This document shows positions 1,531 through 49,632 of a stretch of 64,000 bases of DNA, in pieces. The translations under genes and the position numbers were made by a program. The notes beneath the pieces are model-generated. The model was not told the origin of the DNA, searched no databases, and saw nothing but the letters and a program-made list of their open reading frames with translations. Source of the DNA: Cenarchaeum sp. (GTDB lineage Archaea; Thermoproteota; Nitrososphaeria; Nitrososphaerales; Nitrosopumilaceae); NCBI GenBank assembly GCA_965206845.1, contig OZ242221.1, positions 960,001-1,024,000 on the forward strand. Reading direction: 5' to 3'. Within the stretch, counting starts at the first letter, position 1. The number at the start of each line of letters is the position of its first letter.

Positions 1531-1679
1531 TATAATGTACAAATCAGACATTTTTAACTTGGGAATTCCGGTTCTGTGCAGTCCTGGCGATATGGGCACC
1601 AGTCTCCAGACGGCGCGATGCCACATTCTCCGTTCAGGCGCACACACTTTGGGGAACCTGCCTCAGGCGCGATGCAGCC

Positions 1680-3828: not shown

Positions 3829-3891
3829 GAATCGGTTTGCCCGCCTGCGCTTAAAAAGCTGGTTTAAATTATCTGGGAGGAATCCAAGGAC

Positions 3892-4731
3892 ATGAAGGTC
3901 GGCTGCCACGTGTCAATCTCGGGCGGGGTGGACAGGGCAGTCGACAACGCAGTCGAGAGGAAGTGCCTTGCATTTCAGATCTTTACCAGAAATCCCCGCG
4001 GCTGGAGGGCAAAGGAGCTGGGCGAGACGGAGATCTCAGAGTACAGGAGAAAGCTCGACGCAAGCGACATCGACCGGCACGCCACATGCGCCCACATGCC
4101 ATACCTGCCCAACCTGGCATCCACAAACAGCGACGCGCACCAGAAATCCGTAGACACACTCGTCGGCGAGGTCCGGCGGTGCGGGGATCTGGGAATCCCG
4201 TACCTGGTCACGCACTTGGGAAGCCATCTGGGCGCCGGCGAGGAGGCCGGCATCAGGCAGCTGGTCATGGCATACACCAAGGCGGCCGGGGTAAGAAACG
4301 ACGTGACCATTCTGCTGGAGAATACAGCGGGGCAGAAGAACTCCGTAGGCTCGGAGTTTGGCCAGCTGGGATCCATCCTGTCGCAGCTGGAGCCGCAGGA
4401 GCGGTTTGGCGTGTGCATCGACACGTGCCATGCCTTTGTTTACGGGTACGACCTGAGAACCCCGGATGCGGTCAGGGAGGCGTTTGCGAGGTTTGATGAC
4501 GCCGTGGGCTTTGAGCGCCTGAAGATCCTGCACCTGAACGATGCCAGGGGGGAGATGGGCTCCAGGCTGGACCGGCACTATCACATAGGCCTCGGGCACA
4601 TAGGCATGGAGGGCATCGGGGCCGTGGCAAGGCTGGCAGGCAAGAAGGGGATACCCATCATACTCGAGACCCCCATAGACGACACCCGGGACGACTTTGA
4701 AAACATCAGGATAGTCAAGGGGTTAACATAA
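3892..4731 (+). CDS. nfo: Endonuclease IV (AP endonuclease)
   Basis: GCHVSISGG, HMPYLPNL, LENTAGQ, CIDTCH, HLND, DRH, ILETP. Confidence 0.95.
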   Translation: MKVGCHVSISGGVDRAVDNAVERKCLAFQIFTRNPRGWRAKELGETEISEYRRKLDASDIDRHATCAHMPYLPNLASTNSDAHQKSVDTLVGEVRRCGDLGIPYLVTHLGSHLGAGEEAGIRQLVMAYTKAAGVRNDVTILLENTAGQKNSVGSEFGQLGSILSQLEPQERFGVCIDTCHAFVYGYDLRTPDAVREAFARFDDAVGFERLKILHLNDARGEMGSRLDRHYHIGLGHIGMEGIGAVARLAGKKGIPIILETPIDDTRDDFENIRIVKGLT

Positions 4732-4757
4732 TTAACCCGCTTGTTGCGGCAAGATTC

Positions 4758-6215
4758 GTGGGATACGACAGCGTGATGAAGCTTGCCTTGGAGAGGGGGT
4801 TCTATTTCCCGAGCTGCGAGATATACAGCGACTCCCAGGCGGGGTTCTGGGAGTACGGCCCCACCGGCCTGAGCCTAAAGAACAAGTTCCTTGAGCTGTG
4901 GCGGAGGGAGCTGGTGAGGCGCGACCAGATGATCGAGATAGACGGCTCCCAGATCATGTCGCGGTCCGTCTTTGAGGCGTCAGGGCACCTGGAGAGCTTT
5001 GCGGATCCCATAGTCAAGTGCACCGGGTGCGGGGCCACCTTCAGGGCGGACAGGATGATCTCCGAGGCCGGAGGGCTGGAGATTCCGGAGAACGCCGGGC
5101 TGGAGGAGTTCGATCAGGCCATACTGCAAAACGGCATCAGGTGCGCCAAGTGCGGCCACGATCTTGGGCCCGCCAGAAGGTTCAACATGATGTTTCGGGT
5201 GGGCATAGGCCCAGACGGCGAGGAGGCATACCTGAGGCCGGAGACATGCCAGTCGATCTTTGTCGACTTTCCCAGGATCTTCAAGACCATGCGGGGCAGG
5301 CTTCCGTTGGGGATAGCCCAGGCCGGCAAGAGCTTCAGAAACGAGATCTCCCCGCGGCAGAGCCTCCTCAGGCTGAGGGAGTTCTACCAGGCAGAGATAG
5401 AGGTGTTCTGCAACCCCGCCAACCTGAACGACCTGAAAAAATTCGCGCGCCTACAGGATACCGTGATCCGCATCCAGACGGGGGCAGAGCCAAAGGCCAT
5501 GACATGCCGGGAGGCCGTGCAGTCTGGTGCCGTACCCAGCGAGTTTGTGGCGTACTATCTGGGAATGCTGGCAGAGTTCTACCAGAAGACCGGAATCGAC
5601 ATGGAGCGGAGCCGCTTCAGGAGGCTGGGCGACAAGGAGAAGGCGTTCTATGCGGAGGCGGCCTTTGACTTTGAGGTGGAGACCACGACGGGGTGGCTGG
5701 AGCTTGTCGCCTGCAACTACAGGTCCGACTACGACCTGGGCTGCCATGCCAGAAAGAGCAAAGAAAAGTTCGAGGTGATGGACGGCGACCAGAAGGTGCT
5801 GCCGCATGTATTTGAGATATCCATGGGAATCGACCGCAGCCTGTACACGATTCTGGAGCACGGCCTGAGGGACGACAGGGAGAACGAGAGGACGGTCCTG
5901 TCCATAGTGCCGTACCTGGCGCCTGTCCACGTGGGGGTTCTGTCGCTGGTAAAGAAGGGGGGGCTTCGGGAGAAGACCGACGAGGTGTTTGACTCCCTGA
6001 AGACAAAGGTCGACGCCTTTCTGGATCACTCGGGCGCCATAGGGAGAAGGTACAGGAGGCTGGACGAGATCGGCGTCCCCTACGCGCTGACGGTGGACCA
6101 CCAGACGCTGGAGGACGGCACCGTCACCATAAGGGAGCGCGACTCGATGGAGCAGAGGCGGATACGGCTTGCCGATGTCACAGGCGAGATCACGGGCCTG
6201 GTCTCCTTTCCCTAG
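4758..6215 (+). CDS. glyS: Glycine--tRNA ligase (alpha2 type)
   Basis: YLRPETCQSIF, FRNEISPRQ, LRLREF, IGRRYRRLDEIG anticodon-binding domain. Confidence 0.95.
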   Translation: MGYDSVMKLALERGFYFPSCEIYSDSQAGFWEYGPTGLSLKNKFLELWRRELVRRDQMIEIDGSQIMSRSVFEASGHLESFADPIVKCTGCGATFRADRMISEAGGLEIPENAGLEEFDQAILQNGIRCAKCGHDLGPARRFNMMFRVGIGPDGEEAYLRPETCQSIFVDFPRIFKTMRGRLPLGIAQAGKSFRNEISPRQSLLRLREFYQAEIEVFCNPANLNDLKKFARLQDTVIRIQTGAEPKAMTCREAVQSGAVPSEFVAYYLGMLAEFYQKTGIDMERSRFRRLGDKEKAFYAEAAFDFEVETTTGWLELVACNYRSDYDLGCHARKSKEKFEVMDGDQKVLPHVFEISMGIDRSLYTILEHGLRDDRENERTVLSIVPYLAPVHVGVLSLVKKGGLREKTDEVFDSLKTKVDAFLDHSGAIGRRYRRLDEIGVPYALTVDHQTLEDGTVTIRERDSMEQRRIRLADVTGEITGLVSFP

Positions 6216-6669
6216 CGTCTGCTAGGGCCTTTCGCATGTTGTCAATGTGCGAGCCGTGCCAATAGAGCTTGCCGCAGCCAGTGCACCTCCAGATGTCGTG
6301 GGCCTCCGATATCCGGGCGGGCACTGCCCCGGATTCTGGCCCGTCGTCCCGCCGCAGGGTGCCGTTGCATACGGTGCACCGGGCGCGGCTGCAGTCGATC
6401 CTCAGATCCCCCAGCCCAAGCCTTGCGGCGATCTCCAGGGTGTGTGCCACTGGATCGCGCCCGGCAGGACATACCGCCAGAATGCCGGCCTTCTGCGCCC
6501 GGCGGTACAGCGCCGCATCCTTTGTGATGAGAACGCGGTTCTCCCTTGCCGCGGTCTCCAGCAGGGCGTCGTCCCCGGCATCTGACTGGTATGTTGCATC
6601 AAACCCCAGAATCCTCAGCTTCCGTGTAGTCCTGCCCAGCATCGCATCGACGGCAAACCGGTGCCCCAA
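6190..6669 (-). CDS. Mut7-C RNase (PIN-like) domain protein with Zn ribbon
   Basis: FAVDAMLG..LRILGFD, RVLITKD, RCTVCNG, CTGCGKLYWHGSH. Confidence 0.88.
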   Translation of the reverse strand: MGHRFAVDAMLGRTTRKLRILGFDATYQSDAGDDALLETAARENRVLITKDAALYRRAQKAGILAVCPAGRDPVAHTLEIAARLGLGDLRIDCSRARCTVCNGTLRRDDGPESGAVPARISEAHDIWRCTGCGKLYWHGSHIDNMRKALADARERRPGP

Positions 6670-6670
6670 C

Positions 6671-8578
6671 CTACTCCCGCCGGTTCACCTTTGTTATGTG
6701 GCTCTTTCCTGCCGGCAGCACCCGGAGAAAGTCATCCACGCTGAACCGTGCCGCCGCGTCCTCGTTGATCTTTATGAACTCGCTCCGTAACCTCTTTGCA
6801 ATGTCGGCAGGCTCCGAGCCGCCGGGCTCGATCACCGCATGCCACAGGGAGTTCTTCCTCACCGCATCGGCCGGCCCGCACTCCAGCAGGTACTCCCCGT
6901 TTCTCTCGAGCATTCCTACGCCAAGCTTCAGGGTCGGCACCCGGACAAAGTTGCGCTGCCCGCCGATGCTAAACGATCCCCTTGGAAGAAACTGCCCGCT
7001 GGGAGCCGCCTTCTTTACCTGGTCTGGCTCCACCCAGTAGGAGCTGGCGCCATACATGGCCTCCCTCCAGGCCCTGCTGAAGCAGACCGTTGCGTGCGCC
7101 ACCTCGTTTATGCTGACAGGCGACGCGCTCTGGCCATCCTTGAGGACAAAGAACGGCGAGCCGAACACCTCTGCGTGGAACACCCTGTCGCCGCTACCTA
7201 TGTGCTTTCGTACGATGGACGAGTTTGAGGACGCGTCCCTGCCCCCCACGGCCAGGTTTCCGTCGGATGTGAAGAACCACCTGTATCTCTCAAACCAGTT
7301 CTTCTTCCTGATGTTGGCATACCCGACGGACTCCTGAACGCCCTGCGCCTGGTTCTTGAGCCGGGCAATCTCCCGCTCCGTCTTTCTCTTTTGCTTCTCT
7401 ATGGTGGGTACCGCAGCGGACTGCTTCTTTGCCTCATCAAACAGCGTCGAGGCTATGGCGGGAAGGGACGAGCTGGGATCAATCCTGATCTTCTCGTCAA
7501 GAATCTTGATTATCGTGGAGCCACGCTCGCTTGCAAGCTGGACATCCAGCCTCTTCAACTCGGCCTCGGCGCGCGGTTCCCTTATGGAGAACGTGCCCTG
7601 TGAGACCAGCGCAAAGAGCAGCCTTGCCACGCCGGATATTGCATCTGACCGCTCCTGTACAAGCCGTATTGCCCCGTTCTGCTCGTTCAGTCTGCTCTCC
7701 AGCTGCGCAATCTTGCCGCTCTCGGTCGCAGTCTTTGCCGACCTTGCCTCCTGGAGTATCTTCTCCGTAAATATGAGATCAAGGCCCCGGTCAAAGCTGG
7801 GCACCGGCTCGAGCTCGTCTGGCACGGCGACCCTGATGGGGCAGGCCTCGGGCCTTGCGCCTCTTATTATGACGGGATCGTGCCTGCCGCTGCCCACCTC
7901 ACCGACGATCCCGCGCACGGCATCAAATATAGCCTCCCGCTGGCGTGCCGCAAGCTCTCTTCCGGGCAGGGTGGAGTCGATTCTGGCGCGCCCAAACACC
8001 TCCTTGATGTATCTGGCTGGCAGCCCCAGGCTTCTTCCCACCCATTTGCCGCAGCCGAGATCGGAGTTCTGAATCTCGTCTATCTGACCTTGGGACAGCT
8101 CGAACACGTTCAGCCCGTTCTGCGGGGGAGGGGCGTACGTCGAGCCCACCCTGAGCGTGCGGTGTCGCACCTCCAGGGAGTGCTGCAGTGCCAGGATCTT
8201 CATCTCCTTGCTGCACAGTATGATGTTTCCGTCGCCGAAGAACTCGGCCACCACCACAAACTCCCTCTCAAAGCCCCCAAACGACAGGTATGCTATTCTC
8301 TCGGTTCCCACCTGCCGGATCCCGGTTATCTTGAGCCTGAGCAGGTCGTCCCTCAGGCGCCGCGTCATCCTGTGGAGCTCGATCTGATCGATCTTCACCT
8401 CGGTGACCCACATGCCAAACGTGGTAAGCATCAGAAAGATGTCCGGCTGGTCCGGGTGGTGCAGCTTGAAGAGGATGCTGTCCCTTGTGATTCCATATAT
8501 GTTGCTCACATAGTATCCCGCGATCTTCTCTGAGATCGAGTCCACCAGATAGCGCAGCTCTATGCCTGCCAGTCCCAT
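6671..8578 (-). CDS. rqcH: NFACT/Rqc2 ribosome quality-control protein
   Basis: EFFGDGNIIL, WFERYRWFFTSDG, GGRDASSN, FHAE, APSGQFLPRGSF; start trimmed to MGLAGIEL with TATA at ~8601-8611. Confidence 0.9.
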   Translation of the reverse strand: MGLAGIELRYLVDSISEKIAGYYVSNIYGITRDSILFKLHHPDQPDIFLMLTTFGMWVTEVKIDQIELHRMTRRLRDDLLRLKITGIRQVGTERIAYLSFGGFEREFVVVAEFFGDGNIILCSKEMKILALQHSLEVRHRTLRVGSTYAPPPQNGLNVFELSQGQIDEIQNSDLGCGKWVGRSLGLPARYIKEVFGRARIDSTLPGRELAARQREAIFDAVRGIVGEVGSGRHDPVIIRGARPEACPIRVAVPDELEPVPSFDRGLDLIFTEKILQEARSAKTATESGKIAQLESRLNEQNGAIRLVQERSDAISGVARLLFALVSQGTFSIREPRAEAELKRLDVQLASERGSTIIKILDEKIRIDPSSSLPAIASTLFDEAKKQSAAVPTIEKQKRKTEREIARLKNQAQGVQESVGYANIRKKNWFERYRWFFTSDGNLAVGGRDASSNSSIVRKHIGSGDRVFHAEVFGSPFFVLKDGQSASPVSINEVAHATVCFSRAWREAMYGASSYWVEPDQVKKAAPSGQFLPRGSFSIGGQRNFVRVPTLKLGVGMLERNGEYLLECGPADAVRKNSLWHAVIEPGGSEPADIAKRLRSEFIKINEDAAARFSVDDFLRVLPAGKSHITKVNRRE

Positions 8579-8859
8579 AAACAGCAACCGACGCACCCGC
8601 ATTATACTTTTACTCATGCTTGATCCGTGTTGGGCCGAAACGCGCACGATACCTGATGGAGAGTTAGGTTGGGCATGGGCCAAACTCTCACATTCCGTCG
8701 TATCTGTCATCATTTGTGCCTAAATCTACACGGAGTGGACAGAGATATCCAGGTAGAACCACTCTCCCAATCAAACTGTAGTGACTTAACCTCTTACCGC
8801 GGCAGCGCGCGACTAAAGATTTTAAACAAGGCGCATTAAACTCACTCTAGAAACTTACA

Positions 8860-9417
8860 TTGGCCAAATTTAAGAAAAAGAGATCCAAACCGACAGGTGG
8901 CCCAGAGGACTCTAAAAAAGAGATAAAAGACACCGCTGCCGACAAGCCGGCAGACGATGCCGACTCGACGCCGCCAACCGAGGAGATAGACGCACTGCCG
9001 CCCGAGAAGATAGACGCACTGCCGCCCGAGAAGACAAGGCTGCCCCCGCCGTTGCGATCCAAAAAAGGCCACATAGTCTCCGTGGCCGAGGCGGCCGAGA
9101 CAAAAAGGAAGATGGATCGGCTCTTCTGGATGCGCGTGGTTCTTTCCGTGATTGCCGGGGCGTCTGCCACATTCCTGTTCGAGTCCATCGAGGATGTAGA
9201 GGAGAAGAGGTGGACCTCCATCGGGTTTATGATAGCGGTGTTCATCGTGTCGGTGATCATTGCCAAGAGCATGAAGATCCGGCTTCCCTCTGGCAGAAAG
9301 AAGCTGATAACAAACGGCCTTGGCAGCTTTGTGTTCCTCTACCTGTTTGTGTGGATTGTCACGTACACGCTTGTGAACTCTGGATCCGGCGGCGGCTTTG
9401 TCACGCCTGTCATATAG
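8860..9417 (+). CDS. Three-TM membrane protein with disordered N-terminus (possibly EMC6/Rab5ip-like)
   Basis: TTG start; charged Pro-rich N-terminus, then LFWMRVVLSVIAG and two further hydrophobic helices. Confidence 0.7.
   Translation: MAKFKKKRSKPTGGPEDSKKEIKDTAADKPADDADSTPPTEEIDALPPEKIDALPPEKTRLPPPLRSKKGHIVSVAEAAETKRKMDRLFWMRVVLSVIAGASATFLFESIEDVEEKRWTSIGFMIAVFIVSVIIAKSMKIRLPSGRKKLITNGLGSFVFLYLFVWIVTYTLVNSGSGGGFVTPVI
8986..9033 (+). repeat. 24-bp in-frame tandem duplication (IDALPPEK x2)
   Basis: atagacgcactgccgcccgagaag occurs twice in tandem. Confidence 0.9.
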
Positions 9418-9423
9418 GGCTAC

Positions 9424-10017
9424 ATGATGTGGGACCACAAGACGCCGGGGATTCCGGACTCGGAGTTTGAGCGGGCCGAACGCGTCCCCATAACAAAGGA
9501 GGAGGTCAGGGCCATCCAGATCAGCAAGGCAAGGCTAAACTCCGGGGATACCGTATATGACGTCGGCTGCGGGAGCGGCTCTGTCAGCGTTGAGGCGGGC
9601 CTGCAGGTGGAGGGGCGCGGCCGGGTCTTTGCCATAGACGTCGATCCCGACGCGGTCACGCTCACAAAGCGGAACCTGGCAAGGTTTGCGGTCGGCAACG
9701 CCTCGGTCATACTGGGCAACGCGCTGGACAAGATTGCAGGCCTGCCTGCCGCGGACAGCATATTTGTCGGCGGTACCGGCGGCGACACGGCAGACATAGT
9801 AACGCTGTGCGAGGAGCGGCTGAAGGCGGGCGGACGGATCGTCATAGGCGTAATCCAGATAGAGACGTTGGCAGCAGTGCTGGGCGTACTGGATCGGCTT
9901 CGGTTCGAGTCGGTTGACGTAACGCAGGTCACGGTGGCAAAGAGCAGGAAGACGTCCACCGGCACGATGATGCTGGCAAGAAACCCGGTTACCATAATCT
10001 CTGCCACCAGGGCATAG
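9424..10017 (+). CDS. cbiT: Cobalt-precorrin-6B C15-methyltransferase (decarboxylating)
   Basis: PITKEEVRA, DVGCGSGSV, IFVGG, ARNPV. Confidence 0.92.
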   Translation: MMWDHKTPGIPDSEFERAERVPITKEEVRAIQISKARLNSGDTVYDVGCGSGSVSVEAGLQVEGRGRVFAIDVDPDAVTLTKRNLARFAVGNASVILGNALDKIAGLPAADSIFVGGTGGDTADIVTLCEERLKAGGRIVIGVIQIETLAAVLGVLDRLRFESVDVTQVTVAKSRKTSTGTMMLARNPVTIISATRA

Positions 10018-10140
10018 CCCCACATCCTGCAGGATCGTGTCCATCCCGGCTGGATGCGGCTCTGCGGCCACCAGGCCCCTGCGTCCGGCAGGCGGCTTCC
10101 ACTCTCTAACTTTTATTAGGAATTGTGACATCGGAGCTGG

Positions 10141-10860
10141 ATGCATGAGCTAGTCGCCGTTGGTTGCGGTCCGGGCGATCCTGACCTGCTGACCGTCAAG
10201 GCGGTAAACGCGATACGGGGCGCCGATGTTATCGCGTGTCCCACAGCCCGGGAGGGAAAGCCGAGCATTGCACTGGCCGCCGTCTCCCCGCTGATAGACC
10301 AAGGCCGGCAGAGGATACTGCAACTCGTCTTTCCCATGACAAAGGACCGGGCAGTGCTGGAGGAGACGTGGAGGAGAAACTCCCAGATCCTTGCCGATGC
10401 CGTCCTGACGGGCCGGAGGGTCGTGTACCTTACCATAGGAGACCCATACCTGTACAGCACGTGGATATACCTGCACCGCGAGCTGAAGGAGAGGCACCCG
10501 AAGATCAGGATATCTGTCATTCCCGGCATCGTCTCGATGTTTACGTTTGCGTCAAAGGTGGGCATCAGCCTAGCGGAGGGCGCCGAGAAGATGTCAGTCA
10601 TTCCCTCGTGCTATAACCTTGATGCTGTCAAAGAGATCGCAAGGAACTCAGACACGCTGGTCTTCCTGAAGGACGGAAGGTACTTTGATCAGGTAGTCAC
10701 GCTGCTGAGGGAGGCGGGTTTTGCCGACAGCTCGATATTTGCAATAGGCCAGGATCTGGGCACCGAGCACGAGATCATCAGAAGGCTCACCCTGGGCGAG
10801 GCCGACACCTCCGCCTTGACTACCAAATACTTCTCCATACTGGTGGTAAAGCGTGCCTAA
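10141..10860 (+). CDS. cbiL: Cobalt-precorrin-2 C20-methyltransferase
   Basis: VGCGPGDPDLLTVKA, FPMTKD, TIGDPYLYST. Confidence 0.9.
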   Translation: MHELVAVGCGPGDPDLLTVKAVNAIRGADVIACPTAREGKPSIALAAVSPLIDQGRQRILQLVFPMTKDRAVLEETWRRNSQILADAVLTGRRVVYLTIGDPYLYSTWIYLHRELKERHPKIRISVIPGIVSMFTFASKVGISLAEGAEKMSVIPSCYNLDAVKEIARNSDTLVFLKDGRYFDQVVTLLREAGFADSSIFAIGQDLGTEHEIIRRLTLGEADTSALTTKYFSILVVKRA

Positions 10861-11626
10861 GGTCTACTTTGTGGGGTGCGGGCCGGGAGACCCGGAGCTG
10901 ATCACCGTAAAGGCAAAGAGGCTGATCCAGCAGGCAGACACGGTGGTGTACTCGGGCTCGCTGGTTCCAGAGCCGATAATGGAGTTCTGCCGTGGCGCAG
11001 ATCTGCACGATGCGTCGGGCCTAGTACGCGAGGAGATATTTGACATACTGCGCGGCAGCGCAAAGAAGGGCAAGCTCGTGGTGCGCCTGCACGACGGCGA
11101 CCCTACGATATACGGCGCCATAAGGGAGCAGATGGACGGCCTCGCAGGCGAGGGCATCGAGTCGGTGATAGTCCCCGGGGTTACGTCGTTTCTTGCATCT
11201 GCTGGCGCCCTAGGGGCCCAGCTCACGCTGCCGGGCGTGACCCAGACCATAATCATCACCCGCGCCGAGAAGCGCACCCGGGTGCCCGAGCGTGAAAGGA
11301 TCTCCGAGCTGGCAAGGCACCAGGCAACCATGGTCTTCTACCTCAGCGTTCACCTCCTCAATGACATTGTGCGGGATGTGATCGGCGGCGGATACACCGA
11401 GTCGACGCCGGCGGCGGTGGTCTACAGGGCCAGCTGGGAAGACCAGAAGGTCATCGTGGGCACCCTGGCGGACATTGCAAAAAAGACGAGGGCGCACAAG
11501 ATTACAAAGACTGCCATCGTGATCATAGGCCAGGTCATCAACCCAGAGTCGTACGAGTACTCCAGGCTCTATGACAAGTCGTTTGGCCACGGCTACCGGA
11601 AGGCAAGACCCGTCACAGAGCGATAG
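10853..11626 (+). CDS. cbiF: Cobalt-precorrin-4 C11-methyltransferase
   Basis: GCGPGDPELIT, RLHDGDPTIYGAIREQM, TQTIIITR, SRLYD. Confidence 0.93.
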   Translation: MPKVYFVGCGPGDPELITVKAKRLIQQADTVVYSGSLVPEPIMEFCRGADLHDASGLVREEIFDILRGSAKKGKLVVRLHDGDPTIYGAIREQMDGLAGEGIESVIVPGVTSFLASAGALGAQLTLPGVTQTIIITRAEKRTRVPERERISELARHQATMVFYLSVHLLNDIVRDVIGGGYTESTPAAVVYRASWEDQKVIVGTLADIAKKTRAHKITKTAIVIIGQVINPESYEYSRLYDKSFGHGYRKARPVTER

Positions 11627-12377
11627 GGTCGGCGCGGCAGTCCATTCCCAGCGCCGCCAGCTTGCGCGAGAACGCCCCTGCGTCCCCGGACGCAAAGATC
11701 CTAAGCGGGCCCTGCGTCGGGGCGCTCCCGACTCTGGCACCGGCCTGCCGGGCCACATCGTCGGCCGGATCAAGAAACCTCACATCGGGAAACTCTGCCT
11801 CCATCATCCCCCTTAGGAACGGCAGGTGGGTGCTTGACAGCGTGGCCGTGTCGATGCCGCCCTGCCCAAGGCGGTCGGCCAGAACCCGCGAGATCTCCCT
11901 CCGGCAGCGCGGCGCATCCAGCACAAAACCGCCCGACTCCACCAGCCGGATCAGGGGGCTGCAGTTGACGGGCAGGACGGAGATCCCCTCCGGCAGGCGG
12001 CACCCCTCTATGTACCGGCGCAGCTCCGGGCCTGCGGCGACTGATTCGGTTGTGAGGACCGCAACGTTGCCGGTCCCGGTCATACCGGCCGCCCGGCTCA
12101 GTGGCGGATGCACCCCCAGCGTCCTGTCATCAAGGATCTCCGGAAGCAGCAGGGACGGCGTGTTGGAGCCCACTATTACAAGATCCGGCTTGAAGAGTCT
12201 CCGCAGGCCCGCTATGGTTCCCGTGATGATCCGCCCAAGCTCCGCACGGGTCTTGGTTCCGTATGGAAAGCTGTCGGTATCCGCATAGTATATGATCTCC
12301 GAGCGGAGCGTCCGTCGAAGGGGCCCGATAACGGACAGGGAGCCAAGTCCCGAATCAAAGATCGCTATTCTGGGCAT
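11613..12377 (-). CDS. murI: Glutamate racemase-family protein (catalytic Cys replaced by Ser)
   Basis: IAIFDSGLG, FPYGTK, GSNTPS, LSSTHLP; real start MPRIAIF at 12377. Confidence 0.82.
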   Translation of the reverse strand: MPRIAIFDSGLGSLSVIGPLRRTLRSEIIYYADTDSFPYGTKTRAELGRIITGTIAGLRRLFKPDLVIVGSNTPSLLLPEILDDRTLGVHPPLSRAAGMTGTGNVAVLTTESVAAGPELRRYIEGCRLPEGISVLPVNCSPLIRLVESGGFVLDAPRCRREISRVLADRLGQGGIDTATLSSTHLPFLRGMMEAEFPDVRFLDPADDVARQAGARVGSAPTQGPLRIFASGDAGAFSRKLAALGMDCRADPIAL

Positions 12378-12385
12378 AATCACAA

Positions 12386-14566
12386 GGGAATTATATACAT
12401 TAGTGTACAGCACCCATGCCTTTTTCTGGCGCTCTTGCATTGCCTCCCACGCTTGGCTCTCGCGTGCTGTTTGCGGAACGCGCGGGAGCAATCCCGCGCC
12501 GGCTTCTCGCGCCTTCAGACGACCATCCCGGCCGCCCTGCCGTCGCTTTCACGGCAATATTATACGCGGCATTTACGTCCGCGTTGACGTCATTGTCACA
12601 GTTGTAATTGGTGCACCGGAACCTGTCCTGCGATATGCGGGATTCCTTGTCACTGTGGCCGCACCTGTGGCATGTTATGCTGGTGCCCTTGGGGTCCACC
12701 ATTACCACGATCACGCCGGCATTGGCGCACGCGCCCTTGATCAATCGTTGGAACGTGCCGGGCCTTGAGTAGGCCATCTCCCTGTTTAGTCCCGTCTTGG
12801 CGGAGCTTCCCCTTCCCTTGGCGCCCGCGGTCATGTTCACGAGGTTGAGATCCTCCATGGCCACCGTTCCGGCGCCGTCCGCTATCCTCTTGGAGGCGTG
12901 TCGCTCCCAGTTCGTCTGGCGGTTGGCAATCTTTTCCCTCTTTTTCCGGATCTTCCTGTGCAGCTCCTTGTAGCTTCTTGACTTGGTCTTCCTCGGCTTG
13001 TCCCTGTTGCGGCCGCTCGTGTTGTTGCTGCAGCCGCTGCCGCCAGTGCCGTTCCCACCGTCCGCGCTCTTGCTCCCGCCGTCGGAACCTTCCTTGGAAT
13101 CCTGTTTGGTGCGCCTGTTGCCGCGCCCCCCGCGCTTCTGAGAGAGCTCCGAGTACATCTTCGATATGTCGTCGTCCTTTGCCCTCCTGCAGTCATTTGG
13201 GAGGTCGTGGAACTTGTGGCTGCCGGTGCCAAGGTCGACGGTGGCGACGCCGTGGACTATGCCCATGTCGATGCCCCTTATGACCGCGGACTCGGACGGC
13301 TCCGGCGCCTTTATCCTGATCTGGATGTGGAGCCGGTACGTCCTGTTGTGATTCTTAGTGCGCTTCGTGGTCCTCTTGGTCGTCTCGACGAGCTGGAAGG
13401 AGCGCATGTCAAGGTCCTTAACGTCGCCGTGCACCCTCACCATGCCTATGCCGGGAAGGTGCAGCATGCCGTTGCCCTTGTAGACGGGCTTCTCAAAGAC
13501 CGAGAGTGACTTCGCTTCCCCCTTCATGCTGAACAGGGAATCCCTGTGGGTCCATTTGTTCCTCTTGTTGCTCCACTTGTTTGAGGGTAAATTTACAGCG
13601 GTGTCGATGTCCTTGACGCCCTCCTTTTCCCGGTCCCGCCTGGCCAGGTACTTCCACAATGACTTGTTGCGGCGCTTTTTGCCGTTTGATATTACGAACT
13701 TTTGAACGGCGTCCAGGCCCAGCAGGAGCCCCGCCCTCTGCACCATGCAGCTGCAGGCCTCCTTGCGTCCAGCGGCCAGCGCCTCCTTGTCATGGACCAG
13801 CCACCCGTTTGCGTCCCTCCATTTGGTGAGCATCTTGTTGAGGTCGAACTTGGTTGTCCTCGGGTCGTTGAGCTTCTCCCTGACGGCCATGTTGAACGCC
13901 CACCTCTGCGGGTCCATGTGGCGCGATATGAGATCCGACAGCTCCGCCGACTGGTCAAAGTCCACCTTTATGTTGCGTATCATGGCGCCATCCATTAGGC
14001 GCCTTGACCACTTTTTTGGCGCCGGCTCGGTTGCGGCTGCCGTTGCATCCGCCTGCTCCGTTGCCACTGCTGCCGCCTCCGCCATGATGGGTTTCATTAC
14101 GCATTCAATATGCCATGCGCATAAAAACACCGCGACAACACTATCATTAGTGTGCAGACCATGCTGACCGTCCGCACTGTCATATCCATCGTTTCCGCCG
14201 CGCCTGTCCGCGCGGTTCCGGCCGCCACGGTGCGGCGCCGGCACCCGCTGGAACGGCCATCATGGCGGAAGGCCCGAAAAGGACGGGTTTTGGCCGCTTT
14301 TGAATGCAGTTCCCGCCTTGCAATGCCGGACCGGTCCGGGACGGCGCCTTAAATACGGATCCGGCATTTGCCCGCGTGAAAGGCGCGACCAGACCGCCGC
14401 CTTCCTGGGCTTTTGCCTGCCTCGGGATGCCTGCCGGCGCCGGAAAACCCGGGACAGCCATCGGCCAGTCATGAACCGGGAAGACCGGTCTGCGGACCGC
14501 ATTATCGGCCTGGACGGGAGGCCCCGGACATGCGGCGGCGGCTGTTCACTTAACTATATAATTCCC
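12386..14566 (-). mobile_element. TnpB-only element with TIRs and 8-bp TSD (copy 1, 2181 bp)
   Basis: Ends GGGAATTATATAcattAGTGtACAGC / GGGAATTATATAgttaAGTGaACAGC (inverted); AATCACAA directly repeated at 12378-12385 and 14567-14574. Confidence 0.92.
12400..14097 (-). CDS. tnpB: TnpB-like RNA-guided endonuclease, ~565 aa
   Basis: RuvC-I GIDMG, RuvC-II MEDLNL, TSITCHRC..FRC..C zinc finger, RuvC-III NADVNAAYNI; start MKPIM aligned with copy 2, TATA-like TTTTTATG ~25 bp upstream. Confidence 0.92.
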   Translation of the reverse strand: MKPIMAEAAAVATEQADATAAATEPAPKKWSRRLMDGAMIRNIKVDFDQSAELSDLISRHMDPQRWAFNMAVREKLNDPRTTKFDLNKMLTKWRDANGWLVHDKEALAAGRKEACSCMVQRAGLLLGLDAVQKFVISNGKKRRNKSLWKYLARRDREKEGVKDIDTAVNLPSNKWSNKRNKWTHRDSLFSMKGEAKSLSVFEKPVYKGNGMLHLPGIGMVRVHGDVKDLDMRSFQLVETTKRTTKRTKNHNRTYRLHIQIRIKAPEPSESAVIRGIDMGIVHGVATVDLGTGSHKFHDLPNDCRRAKDDDISKMYSELSQKRGGRGNRRTKQDSKEGSDGGSKSADGGNGTGGSGCSNNTSGRNRDKPRKTKSRSYKELHRKIRKKREKIANRQTNWERHASKRIADGAGTVAMEDLNLVNMTAGAKGRGSSAKTGLNREMAYSRPGTFQRLIKGACANAGVIVVMVDPKGTSITCHRCGHSDKESRISQDRFRCTNYNCDNDVNADVNAAYNIAVKATAGRPGWSSEGARSRRGIAPARSANSTREPSVGGNARAPEKGMGAVH

Positions 14567-16547: not shown

Positions 16548-17241
16548 AAAACGGGTGAACTGCGTGGCGACCGTTCGGGTTACCCACTCCATAGCAGGCA
16601 TCAGCCTGAGGCACGAATTCTGGCATATGCGGCGGATCGCACAAGTGTGAAATCCTACTTATGCAGTAACTGGCGAGTCCCGTGATAATCTCTGGCCAGT
16701 CGGGGGCACGGCATAGAGGCAGGACACAAGGTGATCGAGAAATCAAGAGCGGAGGCATCTAACAAGATGTCAAATCAGGTACGTTCTGCTTTCTGTATTT
16801 ATTGCGGATGTTCAACCTATGGGTACCGGATGGTGCAACCCGGCATGGCGTGTAGACCGGGGATGGAAGACTTGTCGTAACGTAGGACGGCCTCGTGGAA
16901 GATAATTCTGGGCGTGATGTGTGGCAGCCGGCCGGAACCGTCACCCCAATACAGGCAGCCGGGGAGCGCATTTGCGCTAACCTGATGCACAACGCACTGA
17001 CAAACTCTTCGTGAAACACAGGTAGCCGAATGGCCACCTCCCCGTCTCGCATGTGCCGCAGATCTCGTCCCTCTGCAACGATCGCATCCCTCCTGACGGA
17101 GAACCAGATCTTCCCCGGGATGCCCAACCCGGTAAGGGCTGACTGCGGGTATTGCCAGTGCGGCAGAGTATGCGCGTGGTCCTGCGCCCCCCGGCCGGCG
17201 GCAGGAAACTTTTATTGTCCTGCGGAATCTCCCGTATCTAG

Positions 17242-31792: not shown

Positions 31793-32344
31793 CTAGATGT
31801 CTTCGGCGGGCCTGCGTATCATGGCCACGATGGCCTCCTTCTCCTCCCTGCTCTCATATATGCCCCGGAACACCGATGTGGCCATCCGTGCGTCGTTTCT
31901 GACGCCCCTCATCTTCATGCATAGGTGCTCTGCCTCCACAAGGACCGCAACCCCCTTGACGCCCTGGGCCTGCATCTCGTTGGCGATGCTCCGGGTCATC
32001 CTCTCCTGGATCTGAAGGCGCCTGGAGTACTTTTCCACCAGCCGCACCATCTTGGATATCCCAAAGACCCGCCCGTTGGGCGAGTATGCAATGTGGACCT
32101 TGCCAAAGAACGGCAGCATGTGGTGCTCACACATGGAGTAGAACTGGATTCCCTTTGCTACTACCGTGTCCGAGTCCTCGGAGAACTGGACTGACAGCTC
32201 GGAGTTCGAGTCATAGCCGCCAAAGATCTCACTGTACATATCGGCAATGCGTCGCGGCGTCTCCCGCAGTCCCTCCCTGGTGGGATCCTCGCCTATCTCA
32301 ATTATCAGCTCGCGTACAAGCTTCTGCACCCGTTCCCAATCCAT
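31793..32344 (-). CDS. folE: GTP cyclohydrolase I
   Basis: [41 protein letters not shown]; alternative GTG start at 32356. Confidence 0.95.
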
Positions 32345-32389
32345 CACTGTTCCCACAGCGATTCCACTAATATTTGAAGCTAAAGGGAA

Positions 32390-34042
32390 TTATATACAAA
32401 AGTACACAGTACCTTTGCCTTTTGCTGGCGCTCTTGCAATCCCCCCCACGCTTGGCTCTCGCGTGTTGTCTGGGGAACGCCCGGGAGCAATCCCGCGCTG
32501 GTGTCTCGCGTCTTTGGACGACCTTCCCGGCCGCCCTGCCGCCTTGGCTGTTGCCTTGGAGGCAATGTTATACGCGGCATTGATGTCCGCGTTGACGTCA
32601 TTCTCACATCTGTCATTGGTGCACCGGAACTCACCCCGCGACACCCTGGATTCCTTGTCGGTGCGGCCGCACCTGTGGCATGTGATGCTGGTGCCCTTGG
32701 GGTCCACCATTACCACGATCACGCCGGCATTGGCGCACGCGCCCTTGATCAATCGTTGGAACGTCCCGGGCCTTGAGTAGGCCATCTCCCTGTTTAGCCC
32801 CGTCTTGGCGGAGCTTCCCTTGCCCTTGGACTTGGCTGTCATGTTGTTGAGGCTGAGGTCCTCCATGGCCACCGTTCCCGCGCCGTCCGCTATCCTCTTG
32901 GACGCGTGCCTTTCCCAGTTGGTCTGGCGGTTGGCAATCTTTTCCCTCTTTTTCCGGATCTTCCTGTGCAGCTCCTTGTAGCTTCTTGACTTGGTCTTCC
33001 TCGGCTTGTCCCTGTTGCGGCCGCTCGTGTTGTTCCCGCCGTTAGTGGTTTTGCTTCCACTGTCAGCATCTTCCTTACTGTCCTGTTTGGTGCGCCTGTT
33101 GCCGCGCCCCCCTCGCTTCCTTGAGATCTCGGAATACATCTTGGATATGTCGTCGTTCTTCGCCCTCCTGCAGTCCTTTGGGAGGTCGTGGAACCTGTGG
33201 CGGCCGGTATCGAGGTCCGCCGTGGCGGCGCCGTGCACTATGCCCATGTCCACGCCCCTGACGACCGTGGATTCGGACGGCTCCGGGGCCTTGGTTTCAA
33301 CCTGGATGTGGAGCCTGTACGTCCTGTGGCGGTCTTTGGTGCGTTTCGTGGTCTTCTTCGTCGTCTCGACGAGCTGGAAGGAGAGCATGTCAAGATCCTC
33401 CACATCGCCGTGCACCCTTACGGTGCCTATGCCGGGGAGCATCACCGTGTTGTCGCCCTTGTAGACGGGCTTCTCGAAGACCGAGAGGGACCGCTGCTCC
33501 CCCTTCCTCTTGAACAGGGAATCCCTGTGGCGCCACTTGTTCCTCTTGTTGCTCCACTTGTTCGACGGCAAATTTACAGCAGTGTCAATATCCGGTATCC
33601 CCTCCTTTTCCCGGTCGAGCCTAGCCAGGTACTTCCATAATGACTTGTTGCGGCGCTTTTTGCCGTTTGATATTACGAACTTTTGAACGGCATCCAGGCC
33701 CAGCAGGAGCCCCGCCCTCTGCGCAAGGAAGCCGCCCTCTATCCATTCCTTCCCATGTCTCCATCCGGTGAGCATCTTGTTGAGGTCAAACTTGGTTGTC
33801 CTCGGGTCGTCCAGCTTCTCCCGCACCGCCATGTTGAACGCCCACCGCTGCTGGTCCATTCGGCAGGATATGAGATCCGACAGCTCCGCCGACTGGTCAA
33901 AGTCCACCTTTATGTTGCGTATCATGATGCCCTCCATTGGGCGCCTTGACCACTTTTTTGGAGCCGGCTCGGTTGCGGCTGCGGTTGCGTCCGCCTGCTC
34001 CGTTGCTGTTGCTGCTACTACCTCTGCCATGACGGATTTCAT
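32390..34042 (-). CDS. tnpB: TnpB-like RNA-guided endonuclease, 550 aa
   Basis: GVDMG, MEDL, TSITCHRC..FRC..C, NADINAAYNI; stop codon lies inside the TIR. Confidence 0.93.
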   Translation of the reverse strand: MKSVMAEVVAATATEQADATAAATEPAPKKWSRRPMEGIMIRNIKVDFDQSAELSDLISCRMDQQRWAFNMAVREKLDDPRTTKFDLNKMLTGWRHGKEWIEGGFLAQRAGLLLGLDAVQKFVISNGKKRRNKSLWKYLARLDREKEGIPDIDTAVNLPSNKWSNKRNKWRHRDSLFKRKGEQRSLSVFEKPVYKGDNTVMLPGIGTVRVHGDVEDLDMLSFQLVETTKKTTKRTKDRHRTYRLHIQVETKAPEPSESTVVRGVDMGIVHGAATADLDTGRHRFHDLPKDCRRAKNDDISKMYSEISRKRGGRGNRRTKQDSKEDADSGSKTTNGGNNTSGRNRDKPRKTKSRSYKELHRKIRKKREKIANRQTNWERHASKRIADGAGTVAMEDLSLNNMTAKSKGKGSSAKTGLNREMAYSRPGTFQRLIKGACANAGVIVVMVDPKGTSITCHRCGRTDKESRVSRGEFRCTNDRCENDVNADINAAYNIASKATAKAAGRPGRSSKDARHQRGIAPGRSPDNTREPSVGGIARAPAKGKGTVYFCI

Positions 34043-34064
34043 TACGCATTCAATATGTCATACG

Positions 34065-34072
34065 TATAAAAA
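34065..34072 (-). promoter_or_regulatory. TATA box of tnpB (leaderless transcript)
   Basis: TTTTTATA 23-30 bp upstream of ATG; equivalent motif at the same spacing in copies 1 and 3. Confidence 0.65.
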
Positions 34073-34292
34073 CACCGCGACAACACCATGCAGACCATGC
34101 AAACAGTCCGCACCGCCGCGACCATTATTTCCGCCGCGCTTGCCTGTGCTGTTCCTCCAGCCACTGGCGCCGCGCCGGCATCTGGCAGGAATGGCGCGCC
34201 GGAAGGAAAGCCGGAAAATGATGAAAGCATTGTGTACTTTTGTATATAATTCCCAAGCTAAACGGTCGCAGCCGCGGATGCCCGGCCGGGCT

Positions 34293-35006
34293 TTACGGCG
34301 CCCCTATGAACTTGTGCATCTGAGGCACTATGCGAACATCCCTGTAGTGGGGCCACACCGCATCGTACAGCTCCATGAGCAGGTCAAGGCCGGGACTGCC
34401 GGCCCCGTATACCGGCTGAATGACAAAACCGGAGATGTCGCCTGCCGCGATGACGCCGAATACCTGCCCTGCCAGCTCCGCCATGTCCTCCCCGGTGGTG
34501 CGGGAGCTGACGACGACCTTGATGTACGTGTCTTTCTTTGATGTTACAGACAGCCTCAGGCACTCGAGGGCGTTCTTGACAAGATCCGGATAGTGCCCGT
34601 CATCTACAAAACCCGAGTCCCGGGTCTTGAACTCGATCTTTACCAGATCGATACTGGGCAGCACACGGGAGAATCTCGCCGAGTCAAAGCACGCCGACTC
34701 GAGGTAGACGGGTATGCCCTTTGACCTGACATACTCTGCCATCTCCGCCACCGCGTCAGGCTGCATCAGGGGATCGCCGCCGGTGAAATTCACCTTGTAG
34801 GTGTTCTGCTGCAGGTTCTGCCCGATGAGCCTGCAGGCCTCTGCCACAGGGTACTCGGTCCCGGAGTTGGACGGGAGCGCCTCTGCGGTATCGCAGTAAA
34901 AGCACGAAAACGGACACCCGGCCAGCCTGACGAACATGGTCTTTGTCCCGTACAGTATGCCCTCCCCCTCTATGGAGGTGAATATCTCAAACAGCCTTAC
35001 CTTCAA
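34293..35006 (-). CDS. queE: 7-carboxy-7-deazaguanine synthase (radical SAM)
   Basis: EIFTSIEGEG, GCPFSCFYCDT, FTGGDP, PQMHK. Confidence 0.93.
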   Translation of the reverse strand: MKVRLFEIFTSIEGEGILYGTKTMFVRLAGCPFSCFYCDTAEALPSNSGTEYPVAEACRLIGQNLQQNTYKVNFTGGDPLMQPDAVAEMAEYVRSKGIPVYLESACFDSARFSRVLPSIDLVKIEFKTRDSGFVDDGHYPDLVKNALECLRLSVTSKKDTYIKVVVSSRTTGEDMAELAGQVFGVIAAGDISGFVIQPVYGAGSPGLDLLMELYDAVWPHYRDVRIVPQMHKFIGAP

Positions 35007-35639: not shown

Positions 35640-35779
35640 AAGATGTGATTCGTAATTAGCACGCAGGCACATTAGAGCACGATCTTTGGCATAATCATAC
35701 GAAAGTTGCATGCTTTGGAGCACACATCTGTAAGATTATGGGCATCGAAGGCCCGATTCTTAATTGCGGATCATGTCTC
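35640..35779 (+). mobile_element. 140-bp MITE, copy A
   Basis: Near-identical to 48274-48413 and (inverted) 49301-49440; imperfect 19-bp TIR (G)AGATGTGATTCGTAATTA / TAATTGCGGATCATGTCTC. Confidence 0.88.
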
Positions 35780-36394
35780 GGGACGCAGTCGTCCTGCAGC
35801 GCAAGTTCCGGCACAAGTTTGTCAACCCCGAGGGCATGCACGTCTTCTCGGTGATACAGAGCTTCAACAGGACATGCCGCAAGCTGGGACTCGTCCCCTG
35901 GATGTGCGTGGAAAAGATTGCGGAGAACCCGAACTACAACATATTCGAGGCCGGACCTGAGATGGCACGCGCGCCGGCGCCTCCGGCGGATGCGCCCGAG
36001 TCAGACACATTCTACGCGGAACAGGCCCTCGTCGCGCACCCGGCGGTCGGTGAAAGTGTAGCCGAGACGGAACGGCCCCCGGTCGGGGCACCCGCCGCAC
36101 CGCCGGATCAGTCACCTGCTACGTCCCACACGCCGGCCGGAGACAGGGCCGATACGGAAGCAGACCCGCACGGGTTCGTGCCCCCGCTGGCGGCAGGCCT
36201 GCGGCCGGGCAGCCGCGCCGCAATGACCCGCGTCCCATCTCTGCCTCGCGCCATAACCGATCCCGATCATGTGCCGTTTTACGGCAAGCCGCCGCCGGCA
36301 GTATCTGCCTGACGCTGCAAGATGACACCTGGTTGGCACGGCTAGCCGGAGGGGGACAAGTGCTTGGACCTGAGGATGTACCCTGAACAGTAAC
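35780..36394 (+). pseudogene. IS66-family transposase C-terminal remnant with right end
   Basis: RDAVVLQRKFRHKFVNPEGMHVFSVIQSFNRTCRKLGLVP resembles the IS66 C-terminal R..V..RK....S..G....S...TCR..G..P motif; ends CCTGAACAGTAAC. Confidence 0.7.
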
Positions 36395-48017: not shown

Positions 48018-48273
48018 GGGAATTATATACTTCGGTAGGCATAACCGGGGAATTACATACAAAAGTAACCAAAATTCCTGCCTTTTTGGCGCTCCCTTTC
48101 GCGCGCCGTCCTTGTTAGATGCCGGCGCGTCATCCGTGGCGGCCGTAATCGCACGGACAAGCATAACGGGATGGATGGCCATGACAGTGCGGACTGTCCG
48201 CATGGTCTGCATGGTATTGTCGCGGCGCTTTTATGCGATGTGAAATATTGCATGTGGTAATGAAATCAATCAT
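48018..48273 (+). mobile_element. Truncated 5' end of the TnpB/TIR element (copy 3)
   Basis: GGGAATTATATAC at 48018 and GGGAATTACATACAAAAGTA at 48048, leader homologous to copies 1/2, ATG AAA TCA ATC ATG (MKSIM) at 48260, then cut by the 140-bp MITE. Confidence 0.88.
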
Positions 48274-48413
48274 GAGATGTGATTCGTAATTAGCACGCAG
48301 GCATATTAGAGCACGATCTTTGGCATAATCATACGAAAGTTGCATGCTTTGGAGCACACATCTGTAAGATTATGGGCATCGAAGGCCCGATTCTTAATTG
48401 CGGATCATGTCTC
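48274..48413 (+). mobile_element. 140-bp MITE, copy B
   Basis: Near-identical to copy A. Confidence 0.9.
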
Positions 48414-49300
48414 TGAAGCCGAATAGTGCCTTTTCACACAGGATCAAGGGGAAATCACTGCAGGCGCTCGGGGACCACCGGGAGGCGGTAGCGGGCCTTG
48501 ATGAGTCGATAAGGCTGGATCCTAGGAACGCCCCTGCGCACGCGGCCAAGGGGAAATCGCTGCAGGAGCTCGGGAAGTACCGGGAGGCGGTAGCGTGCCT
48601 TGATGTAGCAGTTGGGCTGAACCCGGAATACTCCTTTGCGCATGCGACCAAGGGAATATCGCTGCAGGCTCTCGGAAGACGCCGGGAGGCGGTAGCGTGC
48701 TTTGATGAGACACTAAGGCTGGATCCGAAGAATGCCTTTGCATACGGAACCAAGGGAAGATCGCTACAGGAGCTTGGGAGATACGAGGAGTCGTTGACGT
48801 GCCTTGACAGGGCGGTAGATCTGAGCCCGAACTACCCCTTTGCGCACGTGGCCAAGGGAATATCACTGCAGGCGCTCGGAAGACACCGGGAGGCGATGGC
48901 GTGCCTTGATGAGGCAATTGGGCTGAAGCCGGACTACTTTGCGCATGCGACCAAGGAGAGACTGCTGCAGGGGCTCGGGAAGACGCCGGAAGGCGATAGC
49001 GTGCCCTGACGGGTCGATAAGGCTGGATCCGGCGAATGCCCATGCATGTGGGGCCAAAGTGCGTGTCGCTGTAGAGGCCTGGAAGCACCGGGAGGCGATA
49101 GCGTGCCTTGGTGAGGCAATGGCGCCTGATCCATCTTGTGCCTTTGTGCATGGGGCGTGCGAAGGCGGGTTTTCCGGCCTTGGCCCCGGAACAAGGCACT
49201 GCCTCGTGGACACGATGGCGCTGCTGCCGACGTGCCAAGGCGATCCCGGTGTTGTTGGGGGTGCCAAACTGGGACTGCACGGTGCCGCCCTCATACTGCT
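48414..49300 (+). pseudogene. TPR-repeat protein fragment
   Basis: About seven 34-aa (102-bp) repeats KG.SLQ.LG...EA.AC.D.A..L.P; 5' end missing, frameshift near 48977, decayed 3' units. Confidence 0.85.
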
Positions 49301-49440
49301 GAGATGTGATCCGCAATTAAGAATCGAACCTTCGATGCCCATAATCTTACAGATATGTGTTCCAAAGCATGCAACTTTCGTATGATTATGCCAAAGATCG
49401 TGCTCTAATGTGCTTGCGTGCTAATTACGAATCACATCTC
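49301..49440 (-). mobile_element. 140-bp MITE, copy C (inverted)
   Basis: Reverse complement of copies A/B with a few substitutions; ends GAGATGTGAT / ATCACATCTC. Confidence 0.9.
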
Positions 49441-49632
49441 TGGACAGGATCATCAGCGAGGCCGCGCACGGGCACGGCAAGCCTGCTTGTCTCAGAATAT
49501 TACAGGACGTTTGCAGACATGTGCAATGCAATCATCACGTACTACAGAACCGTGAGGTTTAAGCTGGACATAGTCAGATACGCCAGCGGAAATCCAAAAT
49601 TATTCTGTACAAAACTTATGATCGGCGCTATA
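49441..49632 (+). pseudogene. Probable IS630-family transposase C-terminal remnant and right end
   Basis: LLVSEYYRTFADMCNAIITYYRTVRFKLDIVRY resembles archaeal IS630 C-termini; putative end ...ATGATCGGCGCTATA ending in TA. Confidence 0.55.

Follow-up and report, generated by a model that had tools for sequence, protein, structure and literature searches.

The window analyzed here, a stretch of 64,000 nucleotides (nt) from the genome of Cenarchaeum sp. (designated G000; one contig, 1.65 Mb, 99.99% complete), carries an element that is probably a non-autonomous cassette of the IS1595 group, a so-called mobile insertion cassette (MIC), which would be moved in trans and whose cargo appears to be an OMEGA module (short for obligate mobile element-guided activity) composed of an intact TnpB protein and a structured RNA of approximately 140 nt. 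Cas12 descends from TnpB, which as a rule is associated with transposases whose excision leaves no scar. The element occupies positions 32385-34254 of the window and measures 1870 bp between its duplications. Its ends form a perfect 24-nt inverted repeat, GGGAATTATATACAAAAGTACACA at 32385-32408 with the exact reverse complement at 34231-34254, which reaches 45 nt at 80% (32385-32429 and 34210-34254), and are bordered by a perfect 8-bp direct repeat, AAGCTAAA, at 32377-32384 and 34255-34262. An earlier note on this DNA had reported the same ends, duplication and length, and each value was obtained again upon re-measurement. The sole long open reading frame (ORF) with a family match, at 32390-34042 on the minus strand, is tnpB and encodes 550 amino acids (aa); a 53-aa ORF upstream of it (34088-34249) has no Pfam family. 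Since no DDE_Tnp_IS1595 transposase gene of its own was found when the ORFs of the element were compared with Pfam, the element is a cassette rather than an insertion sequence (IS).

Comparison of empty and filled sites demonstrates that insertion, with a duplication exactly at the element ends, is real and recent. In a public genome collection, a 31-kb contig (L077) whose flanks are 98-99% identical to G000 carries a cassette with the duplication TAACGTAG, while the window has one TAACGTAG, at 16878-16885, with the flanks abutting; the empty and filled sites thus differ by exactly the element plus one 8-mer. Similarly, the focal element lies between genes identified by Pfam as GTP cyclohydrolase I (folE, 31793-32356) and a radical-SAM QueE-like protein (34293-35006), and in a genome of the same genus (G001) the folE-queE spacer is unoccupied, measures 81 nt and contains a single AAGCTGAC behind a conserved CACTAATATTT. 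The junctions fall at the boundaries of the repeat and the duplication, where they had been placed before. The features of the window that bear on the element are as follows, in window coordinates.

32377..32384, unstranded: target-site duplication on the tnpB-3' side, AAGCTAAA; G001 has a single AAGCTGAC at the same place
32385..32408, unstranded: terminal inverted repeat at the tnpB-3' end (right end, RE), perfect over 24 nt, 45 nt at 80%
32396..32536, minus strand: structured region resembling an omegaRNA, with seven helices, 45 pairs, covariation and synonymous-site conservation
32390..34042, minus strand: tnpB ORF, 550 aa, from the ORF list, Pfam and NCBIfam, with its stop codon inside the inverted repeat
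34043..34230, minus strand: non-coding left-end region upstream of tnpB; this left end is of type A and forms a mirror image of the right end
34231..34254, unstranded: terminal inverted repeat at the tnpB-5' end (left end, LE), the reverse complement of the RE 24-mer
34255..34262, unstranded: target-site duplication on the tnpB-5' side, a perfect 8-bp match to the other copy
34263, minus strand: candidate target-adjacent motif (TAM) base G (C on the plus strand), immediately beyond the duplication copy that lies upstream of tnpB; G in 16/16 elements
32365..32384, minus strand: candidate guide-encoding flank, the duplication plus 12 nt, as expected from TnpB biology if the RNA passes the element end
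12386..14566, minus strand: second family copy in the window, 2181 bp, with the duplication AATCACAA and a TnpB 83% identical
16878..16885, unstranded: empty site with a single TAACGTAG, filled by a tnpB cassette in the near-identical relative L077

The focal element belongs to a multi-copy family. With up to three mismatches allowed, the 24-mer occurs 15 times in the genome as compared to 0 times for a reversed control, and the TnpB protein matches 25 places. Pairing of ends yields 15 two-ended elements of 1829-2644 bp, in addition to remnants, and the genome search for shared ends proposed in the earlier note thus returned a family in which 12 of 15 copies have an 8-bp duplication; by degree of match, the duplications are exact over 8 bp in 10 copies, agree at 7/8 positions in two and at 6/8 in one, and are lacking in two. 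The outermost 12-13 nt, GGGAATTATATAC, are common to all two-ended copies. Conservation extends over approximately 150 nt at the right end (3' of tnpB), the left ends are of three types that diverge past nucleotide 12, and sequence conservation ceases exactly at the outer base of the repeat (22 copies). In searches for close relatives outside of G000, the collection of public genome contigs yielded one locus, public metagenome contigs yielded none with a protein query and only distant TnpBs with an alignment query, G000 alone matched at E<=1e-40 among 400 genomes each of the class and of the phylum, and phage records gave only matches below 60% identity; all claims made here are independent of the unpublished genome G125.

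Some further observations concern the ends themselves. All cassette ends (e.g., 32385-32397 and 34242-34254) hold the motif TTATATA, which resembles an archaeal TATA box, and each end might on this basis carry a promoter. Additionally, a solo left-end-like repeat, GGGAATTATATATTTAAGTTCAC, is located at window position 16525, and a remnant at 48018-48300 consists of a type B left end abutting a second end, a junction that is also found at the left end of the copy c1332k.

The link to IS1595 rests upon the ends and upon the genes they enclose. The end sequence GGGAATTAT fits the pattern ggnnatTAT which, together with an 8-bp repeat, we take to define the ISNwi1 group of the IS1595 family. Within G000, an intact IS1595-family transposase gene (genome 27524-28453; Pfam DDE_Tnp_IS1595, 8e-34; NCBIfam IS1595, 160 bits) sits behind a cassette-like end, GGGGCTTATATCGCTGAGTACACA, and a decayed IS1595 gene is found approximately 60 nt inside an exact GGGAATTATATAC end (genome 1467226). 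In G018, a member of the sister genus g18 of the same family, IS1595 genes are likewise located approximately 60 nt inside the same end (L066, L068), tnpB relics bear the same ends, in one case with a 24/24 identical repeat (L042), and a single decayed element (L076) contains an IS1595 gene followed by the 3' half of tnpB between such ends. A survey of public viral contigs, in which 80 loci were fetched out of more than 126 exact matches to the end motif, revealed 20 loci with an IS1595 transposase match and one with a TnpB match. On 10 of these contigs the IS1595 match lies between inverted copies of the motif 1.6-2.0 kb apart, and the transposase genes enclosed in this way are near full-length. 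Ends and flanks were inspected in nine of the 10 (L172, L174, L177, L181, L192, L200, L211, L237, L242), the tenth, L213, having the same end and gene coordinates as L192, and exact 8-bp duplications were observed around the transposase-bearing elements of L172, L174, L177 and L242. The L174 ORF, the sole viral ORF run against Pfam, matches DDE_Tnp_IS1595 at 3.4e-43. Miniature viral elements of 263-736 bp share these ends, four of them with exact 8-bp duplications, and the second genes of the viral IS1595 elements in L174, L177, L211 and L237 (265-318 aa) are C5-methylase-like, PAPS-reductase-like and, in two cases, without a family.

Because the same ends surround IS1595 genes with varied cargo, these ends define a cargo-carrying IS1595 group. 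Since the focal element has the ends of this group and an 8-bp duplication and encodes no transposase, it would be moved in trans by a DDE transposase of the IS1595 family, for which the one intact IS1595 gene in the genome is the candidate. The proposal of the earlier note, namely a non-autonomous IS1595-like element moved in trans, is therefore borne out by the shared ends, the viral contigs and G018. An IS1595 transposase with the same inverted repeats, for which that note proposed a search, is found in the viral contigs; in G018 and, decayed, in G000 such genes lie beside the same end, and the intact gene of G000 has a similar one.

Several observations count against this reading. The end of the intact IS1595 gene (GGGGCTTATATC...) resembles that of the cassettes without being identical to it, and an inverted-repeat search of G000 did not find its second end; the same search for second ends of IS1595 elements was negative in G000, G018 and G016, where contigs end too soon. 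The viral IS1595 transposases are only 36-39% identical (tblastn) to the intact gene of G000, and L200, L211 and L237 lack a duplication, as do L181 and L192 within the flanks inspected. Furthermore, the protein differs by 17-47% between copies in a single genome, though most duplications are intact, and no copy in G000 exceeds 89% identity to the sole polymorphic insertion observed, that of L077. As a result of the 17-47% divergence, recent copying within the genome is not demonstrated, and these features together suggest that the copies came in from a population pool and were not multiplied inside this genome.

Related cassettes and other mobile elements were observed alongside this family. 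On a set of viral contigs (L174, L177, L211, L237, L188), a 708-bp cassette carries a fragment of an N6/N4-methylase gene as cargo. In L162 (G016:C133), positions 176-11827, inverted GGGGATTATATA ends stand 11.6 kb apart with outer flanks that share 7 nt (ATGATTT), and the interior holds an IS1595 pseudogene at one end together with housekeeping-like genes (thermosome, symporter, TPR, arginase-family and NicO-like); either a large transposon with cargo or a rearrangement may account for this unit. Two transposase genes located within cassettes were examined as mobilizers and rejected. The first, an IS66 transposase between the left end and tnpB of L077, belongs to a nested IS with GTAAC ends and a duplication, TTCGGTAG, of its own; this IS66-family element (L077 238-2225, element 23-2010) encodes a 443-aa transposase, has the ends GTAACAGTTCGGTCTCATGAAGC, is inserted in the left end of the cassette and is represented in G000 by fragments only (500712-501574, 445727-446119, 499311-499513). 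The second, a 348-aa ORF in c870k, belongs to a nested DDE_Tnp_1 IS with unrelated ends that start GGGGTTGGTGCG. This IS (ends GGGGTTGGTGCGTAATTC) is located at genome 870713-871926, where it replaces the 5' half of the c870k tnpB, and in six additional copies with 94-100% protein identity; it is probably active, judging from its seven near-identical copies.

Characterization of the cargo begins with the protein. The 550-aa ORF scores 122 bits against the NCBIfam model NF040570, guided_TnpB (cut-off 100), and 57 bits at 2.1e-15 against the Pfam family Cas12f1-like_TNB (PF07282; cut-off 26.3), with a weak match to OrfB_IS605. In an alignment with 45 relatives, D265 and E394 of the RuvC triad are invariant and D486 is present in at least 90%, and within the zinc finger CxxC...CxxxxC, C455 is invariant while C458, C474 and C479 are each present in at least 90%; the earlier description of this TnpB as intact, with RuvC D/E/D and zinc finger, is thereby upheld. 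A frame of at least 548 aa is kept in 12/15 copies, the remaining three being broken by a TGA codon (c129k), a nested IS (c870k) and a frameshift (c1332k). Analysis of the 12 long-frame copies over 427 core codons, with the three broken copies left out, gave ratios of nonsynonymous to synonymous substitution (dN/dS) of 0.25 for codons 40-260 (dS ~0.7; proportion of synonymous differences, pS, 0.46) and 0.18 for the RuvC and zinc-finger codons (dS ~0.7; pS 0.48). TnpB is thus under purifying selection, with a dN/dS of about 0.2. In the same 12 copies, the tail (codons 500-548) shows a dN/dS of 1.1 and a pS of 0.18, and the drop in pS from 0.46-0.48 to 0.18 indicates that the tail is constrained as nucleic acid and not selected as protein. 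Synonymous sites in the tail and RNA region are 2.5 times more conserved than those of the tnpB core. The selected part of the protein accordingly stops near residue 496 (~32555), and the tail reads through the RNA region into the inverted repeat.

RNAalifold applied to 17 right ends predicts seven helices with 45 pairs over approximately 140 nt (window 32396-32536), the final hairpin of which, at 32396-32418, takes in the inner half of that end's inverted repeat. Paired cells amount to 95.2%, as compared to 36-50% with the partners slid, compensatory changes occur at 11 pairs, and both sides are changed in 51 cells versus 17 +/- 3 in shuffles, with 0/500 shuffles as high; these scores are tempered by the fact that the structure was scored on the same alignment from which it was derived, and an Rfam scan gave no match for the region. 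Contigs from four public runs, two recorded as RNA (X4, X6) and two guessed to be RNA (X1, X2), provide additional material, in which parts without cover carry no meaning. Cover is deepest over 32385-32600 in 3/4 of the runs, a result to be read with caution in that the contigs carry no ends, strand or level, depth may sum collapsed copies, and carry-over of DNA is possible. Two contigs of relatives, from two studies, extend 15 and 18 nt beyond the element end, a weak hint of an RNA that continues into the flank. A search of viral contigs with the pattern of the right-end RNA region returned nine matches, rejected as chance, without TnpB or ends.

An additional property of the family lies outside of the cassette. 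When the 16 two-ended elements (15 in G000 plus that of L077) are oriented by tnpB, G is the first base beyond the upstream copy of the duplication in 16/16, an outcome with a probability of 1.9e-9 at one position given a genomic G frequency of 0.285. The duplication itself is AT-rich and partly palindromic, with T or C at position 1 in 16/16 (T in 13) and a purine (R) at position 8 in 11/16. At the mirror position in the downstream flank, C is present in only 5/16, and the upstream G is therefore not a palindromic target preference. Restriction of the G to the upstream side also holds in the seven copies with long symmetric ends. Beyond the two-ended elements, G is found in 2/3 left-end remnants in G000, in 2/3 cases in G018, at the single viral tnpB cassette, and in 3/10 transposase-bearing ends. 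On these grounds the upstream G may be a TAM or part of one. Telling against such an assignment are the left-end remnant at genome 1008018, which has A at the position of the G, and one g18 relic in which the G is displaced by a single position beside a run of A; a single-base TAM would moreover be unusual for TnpB, and the G could reflect an asymmetric preference of the transposase.

If the G is indeed a TAM, TnpB and its RNA would make the cassette a homing element within a cut-and-paste shell, with the occupied allele immune, a reading which we advance tentatively and consider less likely than not. The RNA would extend past the element end, and its guide would consist of the duplicated 8-mer and the adjoining flank. 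TnpB would cut empty copies of the site, in which G precedes the 8-mer. The occupied site would be spared: its right junction has a C, its left junction, on the flank opposite to the one that would encode the guide, matches the putative guide for 8 nt only, and G and the complete target are contiguous in the empty site alone. Through repair from a chromosome copy that holds the cassette, the latter would then be restored or would spread. Were this correct, homing would show in what way OMEGA systems (and Fanzors, by analogy) can function in target-duplicating transposons, and why 15 cassettes persist beside one transposase gene.

Alternatively, the one-sided G might be a target preference of the transposase or an artefact of shared history, and in either case unrelated to TnpB. 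DDE transposases have target preferences, the duplication is AT-rich and partly palindromic with biased first and last positions, and both IS1595 ends in G000 also have the G. Set against these points are the 5/16 count at the mirror position, the seven symmetric-ended copies in which G appears only upstream of tnpB, and the presence of G at just 3/10 transposase-proximal ends; as to shared history, the flanks are unrelated, so that the insertions are independent. We consider this explanation a serious possibility that falls short of being probable.

It is also conceivable that the shell is as described and that tnpB is inert cargo, a decaying passenger without a role in spread. The three broken copies among 15 and the g18 relics, which are full of stops, speak for this view, and a 2026 review argues in its treatment of the subject that DDE cut-and-paste elements profit little from OMEGA (PMC13565253). 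We nonetheless judge inert cargo unlikely, in view of a dN/dS of 0.18-0.25 over 427 core codons in 12 copies with dS ~0.7, the kept catalytic residues, the covariation and nucleotide-level constraint of the 3' region, and a one-sided G that follows the orientation of tnpB.

Less credible still is a different mover, be it another resident transposase (IS66-family, or the IS4/IS5-type DDE_Tnp_1) or TnpB itself by way of its RNase-H-like RuvC fold. IS66-family elements also produce 8-bp duplications, the seven near-identical copies of the DDE_Tnp_1 IS point to an active enzyme, and there is a single intact IS1595 gene for 15 cassettes. The ends of both resident elements, which start with GTAAC (IS66) and GGGGTTGGTGCG (DDE_Tnp_1), are, however, unrelated to those of the cassettes, each element has duplications of its own and is nested in a cassette, and three data sets contain IS1595 genes with the cassette ends around them; as for TnpB, no member of the family is known to transpose DNA. 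Finally, the idea that TnpA moves the focal element as a conventional member of IS200/IS605 (IS1341-type) or IS607, with its ends and duplication incidental, can hardly be entertained, for although tnpB is the classic cargo of those families and a hairpin is present in the right end, as it is in those of IS605, neither a Y1_Tnp nor a Resolvase (serine recombinase) gene was found by searching the complete single-contig genome for the canonical partners to which the earlier note had pointed, there are twelve independent 8-bp duplications and an empty/filled pair that differs by the element and one 8-mer, and those families are described as having neither inverted ends nor duplication (PMC4810608, PMC13565253, PMC3119063).

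Comparison with known systems places the cassette between several of them. With the IS1341 group of IS200/IS605 it shares the presence of tnpB and no other gene, a right-end hairpin and, as predicted from covariation, a structured RNA that overlaps the 3' end of tnpB; those elements have a 4-5 nt target and a Y1 TnpA, whereas the focal element is bounded by inverted ends with a duplication of 8 bp, and no Y1 gene was found in its genome. With cargo-carrying IS1595 elements and MICs it shares GGnnATTAT inverted ends (of what is presumably the ISNwi1 group), an 8-bp duplication and varied cargo, and it departs from them in that it carries an RNA-guided nuclease together with a predicted RNA of its own and in that cassettes without transposase outnumber the intact gene by 15 to 1. 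Both the 'transporter IS', which carry passenger genes (Siguier et al., 2009, as cited in PMC3129680), and cassettes devoid of a transposase (MICs) are established, as outlined in PMC3129680. Highly diverged copies in one genome, a further likeness to the IS1341 group, are described for haloarchaea in a section of PMC3119063.

The possibility raised in the earlier note that such an element is undescribed does not stand in its general form, in that TnpBs in DDE transposons with inverted ends, a rare arrangement, were published in 2023, solo forms included (Altae-Tran et al., 2023; PMC10691335). The main text of that paper, in the Proceedings of the National Academy of Sciences (PNAS), describes six DDE-associated TnpB branches (DDE-1 to DDE-6), all with inverted terminal repeats, tnpB 3' ends at most 250 bp from the transposon end, and solo TnpBs between the same ends that are thought to be moved in trans; IS630 is named there for DDE-6. 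The 2026 review, in its corresponding part, lists ISL2, IS630 and IS1031 as DDE families with TnpB (PMC13565253). The PNAS main text does not mention IS1595, and a literature search by title and abstract found no paper linking IS1595 to TnpB or RNA-guided systems. As far as the main text of PMC10691335 and the families listed in PMC13565253 extend, the DDE family observed here differs from those named in print. Like the elements of Altae-Tran et al. (2023) as presented in that main text, the focal element places a prokaryotic TnpB inside an inverted-repeat transposon with the tnpB 3' end near the transposon end; unlike them, it has IS1595-type ends and encodes no transposase, the end repeat is entered by its ORF and by the predicted RNA, and the flank shows a base on one side only. 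The G outside the duplication on the tnpB-upstream side, in 16/16 elements, is new. A parallel also exists with the Fanzors of eukaryotic transposons with terminal inverted repeats, where a TnpB-family nuclease resides in non-autonomous cut-and-paste elements with inverted ends and duplications, the autonomous partner of which is often not found (PMC10711439; bioRxiv 10.1101/2023.08.09.552727). The present host is an archaeon, its genome matching the archaeal SSU rRNA model over the full length at 1455 bits, and the protein scores as a prokaryotic TnpB by NCBIfam profile.

With this element, IS1595 joins the DDE families in which TnpB has been observed, and the known compact nucleases gain an archaeal TnpB of 550 aa. 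How TnpB serves a target-duplicating DDE transposon is a point raised in a passage of the 2026 review (PMC13565253), and it bears equally on eukaryotic Fanzors. The genome provides a compact natural test set for it, comprising 16 independent oriented insertions, an empty/filled pair, a candidate trans-acting transposase and an RNA-like 3' region of predicted structure, and the candidate one-base TAM position would give a simple rule for distinguishing self from non-self.

Lastly, repeats of other kinds were noticed in the same genome. A miniature repeat of approximately 145 bp is present in the window at 35641-35784, 48274-48412 and 49299-49441 and in at least 35 copies genome-wide (92-99% identity), one of which lies just past queE; another is found inside the L077 cassette. 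A repeat of approximately 230 bp has five copies with 93-97% identity (genome 1111261-1111504, 1117375-1117604, 523996-524226, 1345389-1345617 and 1515095-1515323), two of which, 6 kb apart, bracket a distant IS66-like gene, and one copy interrupts the tnpB of L077. At genome 14640-18990, seven copies of one 45-nt stretch are spaced 723-729 bp apart, suggesting a tandem array of ~726-bp units.

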